Below, piece by piece: positions 1 through 13,735 of a stretch of 64,000 nucleotides of DNA. The position numbers and the translations under genes were made by a program. Positions within the stretch are counted from its first letter, which is position 1. Every line of letters starts with the position of its first letter. Under the pieces are notes generated by a model. The model worked only from the letters and a program-made list of their open reading frames with translations, did not search any database and was not told the DNA's origin. The stretch comes from an uncultured Bacillales bacterium (GTDB taxonomy: Bacteria > Bacillota_I > Bacilli_A > RF39 > UBA660): assembly GCA_946412015.1 (NCBI GenBank), contig CAMKGA010000003.1, positions 12,932 to 76,931 of the forward strand, read 5' to 3'.

Positions 1-97
1 TACTTTTACCATTATAAGTAATTTTACATATATCATTAACATCAATATTAATCTCATAATTATTCAATTTAAAATATATCTTTTTTATATCAAACAT
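1..97 (-). CDS. hypothetical protein, N-terminal part only (gene runs off window start)
   Basis: ATG at 97-95 preceded by GGAGG (rc of 101-105). Reads MFDIKKIYFKLNNYEINIDVNDICKITYNGKS and stays open to position 1. Lies directly downstream of the 1551-aa ORF. Confidence 0.4.
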   Translation of the reverse strand, partial: MFDIKKIYFKLNNYEINIDVNDICKITYNGKS

Positions 98-106
98 AAT
101 CCTCCA

Positions 107-3100
107 CTATTTTATTTTAATTTTATTCTCAATTTTTAAGGCATTATTAAATAATTTCATTGCATCACTATCAAGCATTGAAGTATCAAACTTACTATTA
201 TTTTTAATTTGCTTTAAAGCTAGAGACAATTGTTCTTCTACTATATTTGTAATATCTACGCTTTTACCATTTATTTCTACTTTATCATTAATAATGATAT
301 CATATAATTTAATTATATCATCATTAATACTATAAATAATTACAAAATTTGCACTCTTTAATACTTTAGTATCGGAAATGTTACAATTATAAGTTTTAGA
401 AATAGCTTTCATAGGAATACTATCTTCCTCAAAATATTCACTAATCTCCGAATAATCATACTTAAGTCTATCAAAACTTATAATATTGAAAAGTTCTTTA
501 CTATCTAGTGAGTATTCATCAAGTATCTTATATTCATCATTGAAAACAGCTAAATTCCTACCACTGTAAATAACACTGTTATCTACACTTTCTAAAACAT
601 ATTGTTCTTTAGAATCATTAGTATATGGTCCATAAGTTAACTTTACTGGGCCTTTATAATCTAGCGGATGTACAATATTTGTATCTTTTTTTGCATTATT
701 TCTAATGACGTCTGCTATATCATTATAACCTAAACCAACTGTTACTTTATTCAATATAAACTTACTATACTCATCCTCTGTAATAATTTTATTATCTAAT
801 AATTCTTTATATTTTTCTTTATCCTTTTCAATTATTTCTAGTGCAGCCTGTTTATATACATCATAAACTTTTTTTGCTATATATTCATCATCATACCTTT
901 CAAATACTTTATTAGGTATTTCAATATTATCAAAACAAATAGTATTATTATTTCTCCATACCCAACTTTGAGATATAATGTTTTCTTCAAAATCTTTAAC
1001 AACAAATACTCTACCATCAGCACTAGTCATAGAATGTTGCATACACCACTCTGCTTGATCACCTAACTCTTGACAACAATCAGTAAGAGTTCCAATCGCA
1101 AGTGCGAGCGGATCATCAAGCCTTAGCATCTCATAATTAAATTCATCGGTTTTATTTTCAATTCTAGGAATACTACTATAAACTCTTTGTTTTCCATAAT
1201 TGTATATATTCTGTAGTACCGCAAATTCTTCTTGTTCATATCCAGCAATAGATGAAATTCTTGCAACATTATCATTAACAGTATCTAATTCAGAATATTT
1301 TATTGTTGATACATAATTTAATGCCATATCTAATGTTAGTTTACGATTACTATTTATCGCACATATATTTTTAAAATTTCTTTGGATACTTGCAATATTT
1401 TTAGAATACTTATCATTACTTAAAATAGTACTCAAGTTATTAAATAAAAATTCTCTAAATTTTGGATCATATTGCAATTTAAATCTACCAAATAACGAGT
1501 GTGCTTTAAATCCTGTTAATACTGGATAATTAATCGCAACTGTTAAACAAATATTTAGTGTGCTAAACACATCTTTATTAACATTATTTTCTATTGTAAG
1601 TTCATATTCGCTATCATTTTTCTTAGTATATATTTTATCAATTAATTTATCACCCTTGATTCCTAAAGCATTTCTAACATCTCTAAAAGTATAACTATTA
1701 TCTTCTTTTTCTTTTAATAATTCATAAGTTTCTTTAGAAATAGTTTTAGGTGATGTGGTAAGTAATTCATATAGTTGATTATATCCTTTTGAATCATTGT
1801 CAAAAATTCCAAACGCATATGCAAGCTTTAAAAGTGCATCAACAGTCTCATCAGAATACGAAAACTCTTTAATACTCATAAGCTTACTCCATTTACGCCC
1901 ATTTGCTAAAAACTTGTCAGCCTCAGAAATATCAAATGCTTGCATTACTACATTATTTGGAATAAACCTTCCACCTGTTTTATCATACCATCTTTTTACC
2001 AAGTCAACACTTTCTTTAGAATGTAACATCTTATTAATAATATCAGGATATCTGAATCCAAGTTTTAAACCATCATTTTCACCTAATATATTAAAATAAT
2101 GAGTTATAATATCTTTGTCATAGTTTATATTTCGTAAAAAAACTTGTGATATTCTTTTATCCTTTAAATAAGGCAACCACTCAGGATGAATACTAATGGT
2201 ATCAAAATTTATATTATTAGATAAATTTGGATAATAACTATAATGTAAAATATCGGGTGCATTTTCATCTAGAAATAATTCTGGATGATTTTTCTTCAAA
2301 AATTCCGGTGCATCATGACGATAATAGTTACCACCTAAATAACAATATTTAACAATTGCATCCTCAATAGCTGTACAATAATACTCTAAAGGTTTTCCTT
2401 TTTCTAGTGAATTTTTTGAATCAAAGAATGCATCAGATAAATATTCTTGTGCATTTTCTAAATATGGGCCATACTTATAAAGAGCTTTTAAATAAGTTTC
2501 ATTACCCAAATAACTTATTAAATTGTAATAAATATCATAATCGCTATAATAAAAATTATTATCTAAAGAACTTGTATTATAATTATTTCTTGAATTCATT
2601 ATTAATTGTAAATTTTTATTTTTTAATATATCTATTAAAATAGGATATTGTTGAATAAATGTAGAATCTATACAGTAATCATAAAATTCATCTTCAATAT
2701 TCTTTACAGTACTTTTTTTATATTTACTATTTAATAATTCTATATCTTCTTCTGTTAAAAAGATTTGGGGATATTTATTATAGAATTCGGGAACATCTTT
2801 TAAATCTTTATATACTATACCTCCATCTTTTCTATAATCAAGAATAGCATTATAAATGTATCTAATAATTTCATCATCAATTTCTTCTTTAGTAATACCT
2901 TCATAAAAATCTGATGCTATTTTAAGACCTTTATTTTTAATTATAAAGCCATATTTAGTAAATATTTCAAGTAATGCAGGTGTACCAAATCTAGTAGAAT
3001 ATTGTTCAAGAAAATTTTCAGAAAGGCCATTTATATATAATTCATAATCTCCTTTAATTACATACTGTAAATGTTTATCATATAAATACTTAACATAATC

Positions 3101-4762
3101 TTTATATTTATATATTACATCACCATCAATATTACAATTATAAAATGCATCAATTAATTCATCCGGAGCATTCCTATCCATAAAAATACTTGGATATTTT
3201 TCTCTAAAAGAACCTTTTATTCTATCTAAATTATCCAAAGACATTTCTCCATATAACATAAGATGTTCAATATAGTTTACTATTTTCAAGCAAAAATCAT
3301 TATAATCTATTATATTTGCAGACAATTTCACCTTGTATGTTAAAAGCCTATATACTTCATTTAATATTTTTCTTGGGGAAGCTATTGATAAAATTCCTGT
3401 TTCTTTACATAATTTTTCTAAATTGTTTATATTAAAAGTATCTAAAACTTTATGTTGCTCACCATCTAAAACTAAGTCATACCTAGAATGATGAAAAAAA
3501 TCATTAATTGTATTATATGAACTTATTATATTGATATTCATAGAATTAAAATTACTATGAAGTATATATTTTTTCTTACCATTAATATCCATATAACTTT
3601 CTATAAGATATTGATGCTTATAAATATAATTTTTTATTACTTTTAAAAACCATCTTTCAAAACTATCGTTATTTAAATTAGTAGGAATATCTTTGCAATA
3701 ATCTTTAAAAAAATAAATACTAGCATAATTAAAATATTCAAATACATCATGATGATATTTTAAAATTAATCTAAGTGGTTCATATCCTACTTGATTAGCA
3801 AAGTTTATTACATTCTTATTAAAACCAGAGATAAAATAAACAAATGGAGCACCTTTAAATAGGTCAATATACTCAAGAAAATCATCGTAATTAACACTTT
3901 TTGAATACCAATCATTTCTTAAAAAATCCGGCATATTAACATTTCTTAAGTATATCTCTTCATGATTTTCTTTATATTTCTCTGGAGCATTATTTATAAG
4001 AATCCAATCAGGATCATATGGTGTCTTCTTTAGTATAGATTTAGTTAAAATATTATCTAAATATTTAGCAACACTATTAACGCTAATAACTTCAAGTACT
4101 TTCATAAATGTACTATCAAAATCTTGTAAATTGTTACCTACCTTATATTCATATAATACTTTAAAAATACTTTCAGCATATTCATAATCATCATGATAGT
4201 ATTCATATAACTCTAGTGCTCTAGTAAACCCTAAACAGTTTATAAATTCAATATAATGTATATCATTATTTAAATGTTTAACAATGTTTTTGTCTCTTAA
4301 TTCTTTTAATTGCTCAAAATCTAAACTGACTAAATCATCAAAAGTTAATAAAGCACCATCGTATTTATCTTTAATAGATTTAGAAAATCTATTTGATAAA
4401 AATATATCAGAATTATCTAAATAAACTTGCCTATCAAATGTCATTCCAAATGTTTTTCCTTCAATTGATTTTAGATTAATAATTTTACAGTTTCTAAAAT
4501 CAGCATATCCATTAATATCCATATAATTAAAATTAATTGTAGCATTAGTTTTTGAAAAATCAGCAATATGATTTTCATCACTTACAATTGTTAAGCCTTG
4601 CCATTTGTTCGGAAAAATACGTCCTAAATCATAAGATAATAAATTATTTAAAGTTTTATAGTATTCATCTAATACATCATTACCATCATTTATTTTATTT
4701 ACAAGATTAATTAGTTTTTCCTTATACTCTAAAAAAGTATCCTGATTCATTACCCCGTTCAT
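107..4762 (-). CDS. giant orphan protein (1551 aa), no family recognised; internal (K/N)(Y/H)P-x-(I/L)F...NAPD repeats and a Cys/His-rich core
   Basis: Uninterrupted 4.6 kb ORF with GAGGA upstream of the ATG. Repeated motifs: EKYPSIFMDRNAPDELIDAFY, NKYPQIFLTEEDIELL, KNHPELFLDENAPDILHYSYY. Core sequence: GTLTDCCQELGDQAEWCMQHSMTSADGRVFVV...QSWVWRNNNTICFDNIE. No signal peptide or TM segment seen. Confidence 0.85.
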   Translation of the reverse strand: MNGVMNQDTFLEYKEKLINLVNKINDGNDVLDEYYKTLNNLLSYDLGRIFPNKWQGLTIVSDENHIADFSKTNATINFNYMDINGYADFRNCKIINLKSIEGKTFGMTFDRQVYLDNSDIFLSNRFSKSIKDKYDGALLTFDDLVSLDFEQLKELRDKNIVKHLNNDIHYIEFINCLGFTRALELYEYYHDDYEYAESIFKVLYEYKVGNNLQDFDSTFMKVLEVISVNSVAKYLDNILTKSILKKTPYDPDWILINNAPEKYKENHEEIYLRNVNMPDFLRNDWYSKSVNYDDFLEYIDLFKGAPFVYFISGFNKNVINFANQVGYEPLRLILKYHHDVFEYFNYASIYFFKDYCKDIPTNLNNDSFERWFLKVIKNYIYKHQYLIESYMDINGKKKYILHSNFNSMNINIISSYNTINDFFHHSRYDLVLDGEQHKVLDTFNINNLEKLCKETGILSIASPRKILNEVYRLLTYKVKLSANIIDYNDFCLKIVNYIEHLMLYGEMSLDNLDRIKGSFREKYPSIFMDRNAPDELIDAFYNCNIDGDVIYKYKDYVKYLYDKHLQYVIKGDYELYINGLSENFLEQYSTRFGTPALLEIFTKYGFIIKNKGLKIASDFYEGITKEEIDDEIIRYIYNAILDYRKDGGIVYKDLKDVPEFYNKYPQIFLTEEDIELLNSKYKKSTVKNIEDEFYDYCIDSTFIQQYPILIDILKNKNLQLIMNSRNNYNTSSLDNNFYYSDYDIYYNLISYLGNETYLKALYKYGPYLENAQEYLSDAFFDSKNSLEKGKPLEYYCTAIEDAIVKYCYLGGNYYRHDAPEFLKKNHPELFLDENAPDILHYSYYPNLSNNINFDTISIHPEWLPYLKDKRISQVFLRNINYDKDIITHYFNILGENDGLKLGFRYPDIINKMLHSKESVDLVKRWYDKTGGRFIPNNVVMQAFDISEADKFLANGRKWSKLMSIKEFSYSDETVDALLKLAYAFGIFDNDSKGYNQLYELLTTSPKTISKETYELLKEKEDNSYTFRDVRNALGIKGDKLIDKIYTKKNDSEYELTIENNVNKDVFSTLNICLTVAINYPVLTGFKAHSLFGRFKLQYDPKFREFLFNNLSTILSNDKYSKNIASIQRNFKNICAINSNRKLTLDMALNYVSTIKYSELDTVNDNVARISSIAGYEQEEFAVLQNIYNYGKQRVYSSIPRIENKTDEFNYEMLRLDDPLALAIGTLTDCCQELGDQAEWCMQHSMTSADGRVFVVKDFEENIISQSWVWRNNNTICFDNIEIPNKVFERYDDEYIAKKVYDVYKQAALEIIEKDKEKYKELLDNKIITEDEYSKFILNKVTVGLGYNDIADVIRNNAKKDTNIVHPLDYKGPVKLTYGPYTNDSKEQYVLESVDNSVIYSGRNLAVFNDEYKILDEYSLDSKELFNIISFDRLKYDYSEISEYFEEDSIPMKAISKTYNCNISDTKVLKSANFVIIYSINDDIIKLYDIIINDKVEINGKSVDITNIVEEQLSLALKQIKNNSKFDTSMLDSDAMKLFNNALKIENKIKIK

Positions 4763-4826
4763 TACTTCATCCTCTCATTTAACACTTATATTTTATCATG
4801 TTTTTTATTATTATTCTATTATTTAT

Positions 4827-4853
4827 AAAAAAAAGATATGCAAAAACATATCC
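4827..4853 (-). terminator. rho-independent terminator after nuclease gene
   Basis: On the minus strand, GATATG-loop-CATATC stem (4835-4840 / 4847-4852) followed by a T8 run (rc of 4827-4834). Confidence 0.55.
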
Positions 4854-4901: not shown

Positions 4902-5660
4902 TTATTCAAAACTTGCTTCTAAAATCATATCTTGAGTAATTGGCTTTGATAAGTCATATAATTCACCATCCAAAGTCCAACCAACAAATTTCTTATTTTT
5001 AGACTCAGGATTAGCAATAATATCCACCCTACTACCATTATTTACTTCAATTTCATCTAATACTTTAACATTTTTAAACAATACAATATATTTTTTATTT
5101 TTATAATTTTTTACTTTATATTCATTATACAAATTAATTTTACTTTCTATTACTTTTTTTTCTGATTTATAAAGCTGATCTAAATAAGTAAGATTTGTAT
5201 AAACATATTCAACATAAGCATATCCATTTTCAATAAGTAATTCTTGAAGTAGATTATCATCTACATATACCCATACTAAATGCCTTTGATATTTATCAGT
5301 TTTAATACTCGTCTTTTCGTAACTAACATAAATATTTTTAGCACTTTTTAATTTTTTACAAGTATAATTACTAGCATCTTTCCCATATCTTTCTACAACA
5401 GGATTTACCTCAGGTGTATTAATGCCAAGAAATCTATAAGTATAAATATTACCATTTTCTTTAAATCTTGCAGTATCACCATCAATACAATTTACAAGTT
5501 CAACTTTTATTTTTTTTAATTTATCATTATCACTTACAATAGCCTCATTAGCACTCTTTAAATACTTATTAAAATCGATGTGATAAATACCTGATATTAC
5601 AGCAATAAGCAATACTAGTAAAAAACCAAATATTATTTTAAATGTGGGTGAAAATTTCAT
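4902..5660 (-). CDS. membrane-anchored thermonuclease (staphylococcal nuclease/SNase family) with C-terminal Listeria-Bacteroides-type repeat
   Basis: N-terminal TM segment (IIFGFLLVLLIAVISGIY). SNase motifs CIDGDTARF...FLGINTPEV...YGKDASNY...RHLVWVYVDD. C-terminal KFVGWTLDGELYDLSKPITQDMILEASF. Confidence 0.85.
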   Translation of the reverse strand: MKFSPTFKIIFGFLLVLLIAVISGIYHIDFNKYLKSANEAIVSDNDKLKKIKVELVNCIDGDTARFKENGNIYTYRFLGINTPEVNPVVERYGKDASNYTCKKLKSAKNIYVSYEKTSIKTDKYQRHLVWVYVDDNLLQELLIENGYAYVEYVYTNLTYLDQLYKSEKKVIESKINLYNEYKVKNYKNKKYIVLFKNVKVLDEIEVNNGSRVDIIANPESKNKKFVGWTLDGELYDLSKPITQDMILEASFE

Positions 5661-11878: not shown

Positions 11879-13735
11879 TTAATTTCTTATTTTTTTTATA
11901 AAATCATCTATATTATTTTCTAAATTATCTTTTAATATATAATCACTAAAACCAATTTCAAGGTAATGCTCTTTTATATTTTCCTTATTCTTCTCTAGCA
12001 TAACAATAACCGGAATATCAAAATTTGAAATATTTTTTAATTCATCCAAAACACTTTTCGCACTACCTTTTACTGTATCATCATCGAGAATAATATAATC
12101 ATATTTTTCGCCTACACGAATTCTATTAATTACATCAAGGCCATACATAGTTCCAACTGCATTAATAGAATTATTCGAAAATGCTTTTTTCTCTTTATAT
12201 AATAAATTTAAATCATCATCCATTATTAAAACAGTGCCATCATCATTTAAATTTTTATCTCTTTTTATCTTTTTTTCTTCAGCTATTTTTTGATCGATAA
12301 CTATAATGAATTCTGATCCTTTATCTACCTCGCTTTTAATCATTAAACTTCCACCAATAATATTTATTATTTTTTTAGAAATATTTAAATCGACATCCAT
12401 TTTGTTTAACTTTTTCTCATCTTCTTCATCGAGTTGTTTATCAAGGGTAAGAATATCATTAACTTGCTGAATATTCATACCTACTCCTGAATCTTCAACA
12501 GTAATAATTAAACGGCACATATCATATTTTATCATTACACTAATATTTATATCTATAAAACCTTTTTTAGTATTCTCAACAGAGTTTATTAATACTGACA
12601 TAATCGCTTGTTTTAATTTTATATAATCACCATAAAGATATTTAGGCATTTCACTACTAATATAATAATTATATGCAACATTCTTACCAATCTTATCTTT
12701 AATAAATAAATTTATCTCTTCAAATAATCTTCTTGCATCATATTTAGAATTAGTAATTTTTATTTTTCTAACATCTATATCGGTCACATCTAATATATTG
12801 TTTACAACATACGATATTTGCCTTGTATTATTTTTAATCGCACTTACAACATCTTCTAATTTAACATACTCATTTTCTACATCAATCATATTGACTAATG
12901 AATCAATATTACTTATTGGTTTTCTAACTTCTTGAGTCATTCTAAATAGTAAATTCGATCTTTCCTCGTTATTCTTCTCTAATATATCTTTATTTCTATT
13001 AAGTTCATTAATAACCTTAACATCAGGATTCTCAATTGTAAAATACATAATAATTGTTATAAGACTAAACGCAGAATTTATAACAATAATTCCAGGATTA
13101 ATTTCTCTTAAGGTTGCAACAATTATCATTACTAGTATTAAAACAAGTAATGGATAATTTTCTTTCTGCTTAATCTTCTTATAGTTTTTAATTAAACATA
13201 TTAAATCTATAATTATGCTTATAGCACCCATTACTAATAATGAATCAGCAGCTGGTCCATAGGAATATGTATATACATTATTACTAAAATAATAAATTGG
13301 AGCAATAAGTATAAAAGCAAATAAAACCATAAATGTAAAAAAACATATACCAACACATTCTTTTTTATGTTTTTGATAAAAACTTGTCCCCTTAAAAAAA
13401 GATATATAAATCATATAAAGAGTAAATATTATTAGCCATCCTAGAAGTCCTAATAAAAAAACTCTATTAACAATTGCATTAATTACCACATATGAACTAC
13501 GATGTGCGACAAAGAAACAACAACATACCTCTAATACCAAATTAAATATACTTATTAGTACCAAATAACTATACACTTTGTTTTCTACATTTCTAATTCT
13601 TGGTTTAGAAAAATAAACAATCGCAACAAGAATTAAGTACAATAAATTAGTTAAAATTATCGATAATCCAATAATCATCATATCACCTATCCTTAATAAA
13701 ATTATATCACGAATAAACTTGGATGTAAATTTCAT
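11879..13735 (-). CDS. membrane hybrid histidine-kinase-like protein (about 6 TM + HisKA-like + HATPase_c + receiver) with Gln at the expected phospho-His position
   Basis: The H-box region reads FRMTQEVRKPISNI (canonical SHELRTPL). N-box is NSVENTKKG, G1 is EDSGVGM, followed by GGSLMIKSEVDKGSEF. C-terminal receiver: VLIMDDD...YIILDDD. Confidence 0.75.
   Translation of the reverse strand: MKFTSKFIRDIILLRIGDMMIIGLSIILTNLLYLILVAIVYFSKPRIRNVENKVYSYLVLISIFNLVLEVCCCFFVAHRSSYVVINAIVNRVFLLGLLGWLIIFTLYMIYISFFKGTSFYQKHKKECVGICFFTFMVLFAFILIAPIYYFSNNVYTYSYGPAADSLLVMGAISIIIDLICLIKNYKKIKQKENYPLLVLILVMIIVATLREINPGIIVINSAFSLITIIMYFTIENPDVKVINELNRNKDILEKNNEERSNLLFRMTQEVRKPISNIDSLVNMIDVENEYVKLEDVVSAIKNNTRQISYVVNNILDVTDIDVRKIKITNSKYDARRLFEEINLFIKDKIGKNVAYNYYISSEMPKYLYGDYIKLKQAIMSVLINSVENTKKGFIDINISVMIKYDMCRLIITVEDSGVGMNIQQVNDILTLDKQLDEEDEKKLNKMDVDLNISKKIINIIGGSLMIKSEVDKGSEFIIVIDQKIAEEKKIKRDKNLNDDGTVLIMDDDLNLLYKEKKAFSNNSINAVGTMYGLDVINRIRVGEKYDYIILDDDTVKGSAKSVLDELKNISNFDIPVIVMLEKNKENIKEHYLEIGFSDYILKDNLENNIDDFIKKIRN

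Follow-up and report, generated by a model that had tools for sequence, protein, structure and literature searches.

A 1551-residue protein from an uncultured Bacillales bacterium with a helical-repeat scaffold and a GNAT-like head in structural models

Background

The window analyzed in this work is a stretch of 64,000 nucleotides (nt) from an uncultured Bacillales bacterium (GTDB lineage Bacteria; Bacillota_I; Bacilli_A; RF39; UBA660), which corresponds to positions 12,932 to 76,931 of the forward strand of contig CAMKGA010000003.1 [GenBank: GCA_946412015.1]. At its very beginning, on the minus strand, lies a gene for a protein of 1551 amino acids (aa), referred to below as the giant, which is preceded by a gene for a staphylococcal-type nuclease (SNase) and followed by a gene for a product of 103 aa. 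A first reading of the letters alone (the original prediction) had described the giant as a cytoplasmic orphan built of short repeated modules and a Cys/His core, for which a defence or conflict function was conceivable.

Here we report on the organization of the giant, its homologs and its genomic surroundings. On sequence grounds the giant can be placed in an extensive unnamed family whose members are big cytoplasmic proteins encoded by uncultured, small-genome Bacilli of gut and rumen. The structural models contain a helical scaffold and a C-terminal head which we call, with modest confidence, GNAT-like, without assigning it as a member of the GNAT family. A transferase-type activity of this head, with Cys1230 as the working residue, is the function that we weigh below against several alternatives.

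Results and discussion

The giant gene and its operon

The giant is encoded by a single open reading frame (ORF) of 1551 codons, intact and free of interruptions as originally read, in very AT-rich DNA (G+C of the window DNA 22-28%), and a ribosome-binding site GAGAGGA stands ahead of its ATG at about 4769-4775. No transmembrane segment is present, the maximum of the Kyte-Doolittle plot over 19 residues being 1.44, which supports the cytoplasmic location predicted before. The features of the gene and its product are collected in Table 1.

The operon layout was read from the contig DNA upstream of the window. Five genes follow one another on one strand: those for the giant itself (giant B, 1551 aa), the 103-aa product, a 615-aa product, a second giant (giant A, 1329 aa) and a ProA-like protein of 322 aa. 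They are spaced by gaps of 9, 15 and 7 nt and, finally, by an 11-nt overlap of giant A with the ProA-like gene. The expected coupled downstream gene was thus confirmed, since the 103-aa gene begins 9 nt past the stop of the giant behind a GGAGG sequence. The layout shows the window giant as the first gene of a putative five-gene operon, the last two genes of which make up the canonical giant/ProA-like pair.

On the other side, the 139-nt spacer between the SNase gene and the giant gene holds a hairpin (GATATG-TTTTTG-CATATC) and a T8 run, likely a terminator, and therefore the giant would begin its own transcription unit. The hairpin was not called by the consensus terminator scan because it has fewer than 3 G-C pairs. 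Promoter and terminator scans were altogether uninformative in this AT-rich DNA, their counts being equal to those in shuffled sequence.

Table 1 Features of the giant gene, its product and the adjoining DNA (positions in the window)
Feature	Position	Strand	Basis
P0001, complete ORF, 1551 aa, 'B-type' (partner-less) giant	107..4762	-	ORF reading; purifying selection against P0002
N-terminal region, aa 1-250, helices and a short beta-strand stretch (aa ~57-95)	4013..4762	-	Model m16597a8a5615, family consensus
Helical repeat R0, aa ~245-400, contains NNAPEKYKENHEEIYLRNVNMPDFL	3563..4030	-	hhalign
Helical repeat R1, aa ~505-650, contains EKYPSIFMDRNAPDELIDAFY	2813..3250	-	hhalign
Helical repeat R2, aa ~650-810, contains NKYPQIFLTEEDIELL	2333..2815	-	hhalign
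Helical repeat R3, aa ~810-930, contains KNHPELFLDENAPDILHYSYY	1973..2335	-	hhalign
Helical 'neck', aa ~930-1190, strongly conserved	1193..1975	-	Conservation; all-helical in model maa1ff2dd94e0
Core domain, GNAT-like lobe 1, aa ~1195-1400	563..1180	-	Conservation, strand/helix order of the model, Foldseek
Cys1229-Cys1230-Gln1231, candidate nucleophile or metal ligand	1070..1078	-	Conservation in diverse members, distant paralogs and the cyanophage homolog
C-terminal alpha/beta lobe 2, aa ~1400-1551, weakly conserved, lacking the '...D.ERGxxxxR' tail	110..565	-	Secondary structure of the model, A/B alignment
First part of the gene downstream (103 aa; whole gene L005:12717-13028), next in the operon	1..97	-	ORF reading; no homolog in 87 other loci
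AT-rich hairpin and subsequent T8 in the spacer from SNase stop to giant gene	4827..4852	-	Read from sequence

A large family without a name

The giant is not an orphan, as it had been called. A word-indexed search found at least 286 full-length homologs, most of them 1500-1700 aa long, with 98-100% of the query aligned and identities of 32-43%; one of them reaches 91%. Four paralogs from the own genome of the organism served to build a profile of the ~310-aa core, and this profile matches 2711 representative clusters at 50% identity (1138 at E≤1e-10 and 281 at E≤1e-30). The core-bearing proteins range from 180 to 1885 aa, with a median distance of ~160 aa between the core and the C-terminus. 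Six core-bearing ORFs of 1555, 1334, 1099, 1040, 967 and 710 codons are found in the own genome, and the lobe 1 core (see below) is common to all six. This is the highest count among the 201 sampled genomes of the order, and the genome itself measures 1.69 Mb as compared with 0.8-1.5 Mb in relatives.

The core is present in 10 of the 41 nearest genomes and, across the order, in 60 of 201 high-quality genomes and 38 of 99 genera, so that roughly one third of the sampled genomes carry at least one core-domain protein. The closest full-length relatives take up ~5 kb of coding sequence each, a considerable part of a genome of about 1 Mb. Species-representative genomes with family members are labelled as uncultured Bacilli, Tenericutes, Erysipelotrichaceae, Mycoplasma sp. 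CAG:877 and Clostridium sp. CAG:710 and CAG:914, and the loci in them originate from human, rabbit, goat and chicken gut.

The original statement that no known domain could be recognized has stood up to all library searches. Neither Pfam nor NCBIfam gave a match to the giant even at E≤1, PHROGs, PADLOC and PDB sequences (phmmer and profile search) gave none, and a literature search returned nothing relevant to the giant family, which thus has neither a name nor a model in any library searched. A single marginal match in the phage GenBank collection, then confirmed by a hidden Markov model (HMM; E=5e-14), is a 695-aa hypothetical protein of cyanophage MaMV-DH01 [GenBank: OP394178.1; L093:2846-4933]; it keeps TKCCQ...IIAQSWTW...LCFDNCE, and therefore the domain extends beyond Bacilli. 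Two proteins were set aside in which the core is joined to the first half of another domain, that of a C-5 DNA methylase in P0286 and that of a GT8 glycosyltransferase in P0282; both come from short metagenome contigs and resemble chimeras of assembly or gene calling, although they are possibly real fusions.

Helical scaffold and repeats

AlphaFold2 models of the giant were built on an alignment of 92 sequences. The model of aa 1-900 has a mean predicted local distance difference test score (pLDDT) of 87.3 and a predicted template modelling score (pTM) of 0.58, and that of aa 881-1551 has a pLDDT of 87.8 and a pTM of 0.83, so that both can be regarded as confident. Residues ~1-1190 are almost wholly helical in the models, with few short strands. 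Family motifs in this part comprise DLSxIP..W and DFSKT.ANIDF in the N-terminal region (family consensus) and WYDKTGG.FIP, LKLAY.FG.FD and NSNR.LT in the neck.

The ~20-aa modules noticed in the first reading are real as motifs, but they are parts of fuller units: the P-x-(I/L)F-x3-(N/D)AP-x-EL motifs mark the stretches of highest conservation within four homologous repeats, each ~120-150 aa long. The layout of a repeat is [P-E-F..hPEIFl..(N/D)AP.ELK..FY], then [LKDKNL], then [FGNEKfL.L..KYG]. Alignment of sub-profiles with hhalign gave E values of 1e-20 for R1-R2, 1e-19 for R1-R3, 3e-13 for R2-R3, 8e-9 for R0-R1 and 1e-8 for R0-R2. A Foldseek search with the N-terminal 900 aa retrieved no significant structural relative, the best match (E=1.0) and its like being generic solenoids. 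The models thus show the ~1190 N-terminal residues as a predicted, mostly helical scaffold that contains four repeats and the conserved neck.

Fold of the C-terminal head

In the model the C-terminal ~360 residues (aa ~1195-1551) form two alpha/beta lobes. Among the 50 top matches of the C-terminal model in a Foldseek search of PDB, 47 are proteins of the GNAT fold, including 3n7z, 2i00, VipF (6wqb/7wx5), FemX, GCN5 (1m1d), SpeG and RimI. The best match has E=5e-3 with a probability of 0.94 and none reaches 1e-3; probabilities go up to 0.97 and target-normalised TM-scores up to 0.52. GNAT acetyltransferases are also found when BFVD is searched with the same model, together with a 656-aa phage protein (E=9e-10 over 571 columns). 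The order of secondary structure elements given by DSSP fits the GNAT succession beta1-alpha1-alpha2-beta2-beta3-beta4-alpha3-beta5-alpha4-beta6, the supporting PDB matches being weak. It is because of this weak Foldseek similarity, with no match at E≤1e-3, that the head is termed GNAT-like only.

Two kinds of GNAT proteins, the GNAT fold being the sole source of structural relatives for aa ~1195-1551, can be compared with the head. The tandem GNATs (Eis-like 3n7z and 2i00, Legionella VipF 6wqb and 7wx5, and clavulanate 2wpw) and FemX (1ne9, 7z6a) consist, like the head in the model, of two consecutive alpha/beta lobes with the GNAT strand order, and align with it in 300-390 columns across both lobes. 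These alignments have E values from 5e-3 to 0.2, 7-10% identity and a root-mean-square deviation (rmsd) of ~22 Å, and therefore the orientation of the lobes differs; no sequence-profile match accompanies them. Single-domain GNATs (Tetrahymena GCN5 1m1d and 1qst, SpeG, RimI 5isv and CBU0801 9mto) give the best target-normalised TM-scores, 0.49-0.52, with probabilities of 0.87-0.97 and an rmsd of 6-10 Å over 150-210 columns, again with no sequence-profile match.

The giant head differs from both kinds in several respects. The coenzyme A (CoA) pyrophosphate loop of motif A, Q/R-x-x-G-x-G/A, is absent between beta4 and alpha3 of lobe 1. The window protein has IPNKVFERYDDEY after beta4 (TICFDNIE), the strand ends in CFDNIE-IP, and among family members neither the length nor the sequence of the loop is constant. 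The head has its own conserved Cys-Cys-Gln/His/Arg/Asp-x-x-Glu set, not seen in the tandem GNATs, FemX or single-domain GNATs, and is fused to the ~1190-aa helical scaffold, unlike any of these proteins. No sequence similarity was detected between lobe 1 and lobe 2, so that a duplication of one from the other is not detectable.

Conserved residues of the core

Conservation was scored at ≥95% in 113 diverse family members. This level is reached by R1193, I1198, P1199, G1224, C1229, C1230, H1243, G1250, R1251, S1266, W1267, W1269, R1270, N1271, C1276, F1277, D1278, I1280, E1281, Y1303, T1341, G1343, G1345 and Q1387. The motifs of lobe 1 are IPRI, YE.L..DDP, T-D-C-C-Q, H1243, GR, SWVWRN, CFDNIE and TVG.GYNDIA, and lobe 2 is weakly conserved. 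The block at nt ~920-1129 (aa ~1212-1281), singled out in the first reading as looking conserved, is indeed the most conserved part of the family, and its proposed role as a metal or catalytic site is plausible, the block being the functional heart of the protein.

Against the 91%-identical ortholog P0002 the ratio of nonsynonymous to synonymous substitution rates (dN/dS) is 0.36 over the whole gene; it is lowest in the core (0.08) and the first 250 aa (0.09), reaches 0.19 in the neck and is most relaxed in the repeats (0.53). The core is under strong purifying selection. Synonymous divergence (dS) against L011:7664-12334 (the 91% ortholog) is itself a mosaic, 0.03-0.04 in aa 1-250 and 930-1190 and 0.15-0.25 elsewhere, which suggests recombination between alleles.

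The CC-x9-C-x2-H signature of the original prediction survives in part: C1229, C1230 and H1243 are among the residues listed above, but C1240 falls below 95% and the full signature is not universal. Both C1240 and H1243 are replaced in the tandem copies of two other loci (L077/L082) and in the distant paralogs of the own genome, where the second Cys of the CC pair and the glutamate of (D/N)(N/S)IE are kept. This pattern leads us to infer that Cys1230 is more probably a functional residue than part of a strict four-ligand zinc site.

The same residues have to be considered in the light of a different possibility, namely that the head is a non-catalytic pseudo-enzyme with structural zinc (or an Fe-S centre) at CC...C..H...C, and the whole giant purely a scaffold or adaptor for binding partners, among them the dead ProA-like protein described below. 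The spacing of CC-x9-C-x2-H together with C1276 suits a metal site, and the candidate zinc ligands C1229, C1230, H1243 and C1276 each reach ≥95% in close and mid-distance members; the missing GNAT motif A, a partner protein that is a dead enzyme, and the poor conservation of lobe 2 point the same way. However, C1240 and H1243 are lost in several subfamilies, L077/L082 and the distant paralogs among them, while CCQ, SW.W and CFDN.E persist, which is easier to reconcile with a catalytic constellation than with a metal site of four ligands. Gln1231, Arg1270, Asp1278 and Glu1281, which are not metal ligands, are equally conserved, and the dN/dS of the core is as low as expected of an active site. 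We regard the pseudo-enzyme as rather unlikely.

One conserved Cys and one conserved His might also belong to a Cys/His peptidase, a transglutaminase-type enzyme or a PcfJ-like domain, and three 'PcfJ-like' proteins did occur among the weak BFVD matches (probabilities 0.25-0.41). No papain-like or transglutaminase-like structure is present among the Foldseek matches, though, and His1243 is not kept universally. The PcfJ link was rejected, as the PF14284 HMM was silent in the genome at E≤10 and a probability of 0.1 was obtained when the core profile was compared with 12 genuine PcfJ proteins by hhalign. Papain-like and PcfJ-like readings are thus disfavoured, and a head of any of these three kinds seems highly improbable.

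The ProA-like partner and two types of giants

The 322-aa ProA-like gene matches NF001221 with E=8e-18, at 64 bits as against a cut-off of 289 bits. Aligned with ProA of T. maritima (1o20), the partner covers residues 98-249 and 333-380 and skips 250-332; its match to TIGR00407 likewise skips model positions 235-308. The missing stretch is taken to be the segment that holds the catalytic Cys in ProA. In the own genome, which is 93% complete, no proB and no genuine proA were found, the truncated partner being the only ProA-like sequence, and therefore the ProA-like gene cannot work in proline synthesis.

Pairing was counted in 80 loci from other species, in which 78 giants could be assessed. 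A ProA-like gene follows 63 of the 78, usually with an overlap of 10-28 nt. The window giant is not of this kind: the next gene is the unrelated 103-aa ORF, and the ProA-like gene comes only after the second giant. In a maximum-likelihood tree of the C-terminal 680 aa the window protein falls into a clade with P0002, the L012 ortholog, L013 and P0004 (support 100*), the sister of which is formed by the upstream tandem giants of L077/L082 (support 88). No member of this partner-less group was seen with a ProA-like gene. Giant A of the own genome lies inside the mainstream paired clade (99*).

Paired (A-type) and partner-less (B-type) giants share the full-length architecture of repeats, neck and CCQ core, with all core residues conserved at 32-43% identity between the window giant and A-type proteins. 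They differ in clade, in the adjoining ProA-like gene and at the C-terminus, since A-type proteins end in '...D.ERGxxxxR' and B-type proteins end earlier. In the own A-type gene (L005:6857-6900) the ERG codons GAA-AGG-GGA are at the same time the Shine-Dalgarno sequence of the overlapping GTG start of the ProA-like gene, so the A-type tail may be conserved for translational coupling at the RNA level rather than as a protein motif. The order of B-type giants, A-type giant and ProA-like gene recurs in an unrelated metagenome-assembled genome (L082). A distinct clade that has no ProA-like coupling, keeps every core residue and can precede a canonical pair within the same operon offers a natural experiment on the role of the partner.

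The other two genes of the operon were considered as conserved partners and rejected, as tblastn found nothing related to either the 103-aa or the 615-aa gene in 87 other giant loci.

Proposed function of the giant

We propose, at about even confidence, that the giant represents an undescribed multi-domain family in which a helical scaffold carries a GNAT-like, transferase-type head using Cys1230, the repeats recruit a target, and the ProA-like subunit is shared or dispensed with. The head would act as a transferase-type enzyme through Cys1230, by an unusual chemistry, probably a CoA-independent or covalent (thioester) transfer of an acyl or aminoacyl group. The helical repeats would recruit a macromolecular target, and a B-type copy would either share the single ProA-like subunit of its operon or act without one. 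A Cys-Cys-Gln head of GNAT-like fold lacking the CoA loop, with a usual ProA-like partner lacking the catalytic-Cys region, points to chemistry beyond known transferases.

Several observations weigh against this proposal. The resemblance to GNAT proteins is structural only and weak, with a best E of 5e-3 in PDB and rmsd values of 7-22 Å; GNAT sequence models (Pfam Acetyltransf_1, _10 and related) are silent on the giant, as they are on 20 diverse family members, and the PDB profile search came back empty. With motif A absent the acyl donor cannot be named. As far as the available DNA extends, no ProA-like gene stands near either of the close orthologs, P0002 and L012, which weakens the idea of a shared partner. 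The L012 ortholog (65% identical, L012:9243-13925) is split into ORFs of 955 and 593 aa, either a pseudogene or the result of a sequencing error, and B-type giants may therefore be dispensable.

A bolder version of the proposal, improbable in our estimate, would make the giants and the inactivated ProA-like subunit a new CoA-independent machine that modifies proteins or other macromolecules, in which the activated acyl group (gamma-glutamyl, for instance), normally bound in ProA as a thioester by the catalytic Cys, is held instead on the invariant Cys-Cys of the head, the target is chosen by the repeats, the B-type giant borrows the ProA-like subunit and the whole may be used in conflicts with mobile elements.

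Genomic context and mobility

The surroundings of the family, with genes taken as simple ORF calls, were examined with regard to the defence or conflict function thought conceivable at first. Such a giant would serve a system of anti-phage or inter-element conflict as its effector or sensor, with variable repeats that recognize the invader and a head that modifies the target. The patchy distribution given above and the expansion to six copies in the own genome are what such a system might display, as are the relaxed or diversifying repeats and the mosaic of dS along the gene. Nor does the family occupy a universally conserved place in a syntenic core context, the pattern that the original prediction had set against a defence function: its distribution is patchy, its places in the genomes vary, and one member is part of a mobile element. 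The 91% ortholog is located after genes for a Y-family polymerase, NUDIX, LOG and DnaG-zinc-ribbon proteins, and the 65% ortholog lies between an ABC transporter gene and a Y-family polymerase gene with a Bro-N gene nearby.

The Pfam family that occurs most often among 129 immediate neighbours is the large serine recombinase (5 cases), the others being ordinary housekeeping genes. In L106:4467-8714 (IMGVR_UViG_3300029743_000253) an 887-aa core-domain protein comes behind a 521-aa AAA/STAND-like ATPase, and the pair is flanked by two large serine recombinases, TnpV, a Mob_Pre relaxase, a tyrosine integrase and an M78 peptidase; this looks like a mobilisable element that carries a distant family member. 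The relatives encoded by phages, that is the BFVD protein and that of cyanophage MaMV-DH01, are in line with such an association.

Against a conflict system, none of the PADLOC 2.0 defence models gave a family at E≤1, and the genes on either side of the 80 loci, 276 in number, form 208 clusters of at most 7 members; most of these genes are housekeeping genes and do not make up defence islands. Only one match was obtained among 2.9 million IMG/VR contigs and none in the plasmid collection, and the giant contains no toxin-like or nuclease-like domain. The neighbouring nuclease, taken before as a hint at defence, gives no evidence for it: its product is probably anchored in the membrane or secreted, its gene is separated from the giant by the spacer with hairpin and T8 run, and no SNase gene is near the 91% and 65% orthologs. 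The adjacent nuclease looks unrelated to the giant.

Family members do occur on mobile elements and in phages, without a defence-island signature. These data speak neither for nor decisively against a defence role, which we judge unlikely as an explanation of the giant; the transferase-type function of the head remains the proposal that we favour.

Other genes at the locus

The SNase/thermonuclease (NucI-like) gene occupies 4902-5660 of the window on the minus strand, and its product has an N-terminal hydrophobic anchor (Kyte-Doolittle 2.67), which would make it probably secreted or membrane-bound. The 615-aa protein of the operon (L005:10854-12701, G000:C3), encoded just outside the start of the window, contains an H-E-N-G-H (HExxH-type) motif and has no library match; its paralog on contig C14 is 38% identical, and a homolog in one congener, unlinked to a giant, is 32% identical. 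The suggestion that a 555-aa gene found upstream of a giant in another locus (L006) corresponds to the own 615-aa gene was unsupported, as BLASTP showed no significant similarity between them. A 232-aa protein (L005:3538-4236, minus strand), encoded ~9 kb from the SNase gene, gives a weak match to NuiA (nuclease A inhibitor-like) with E=1e-4.

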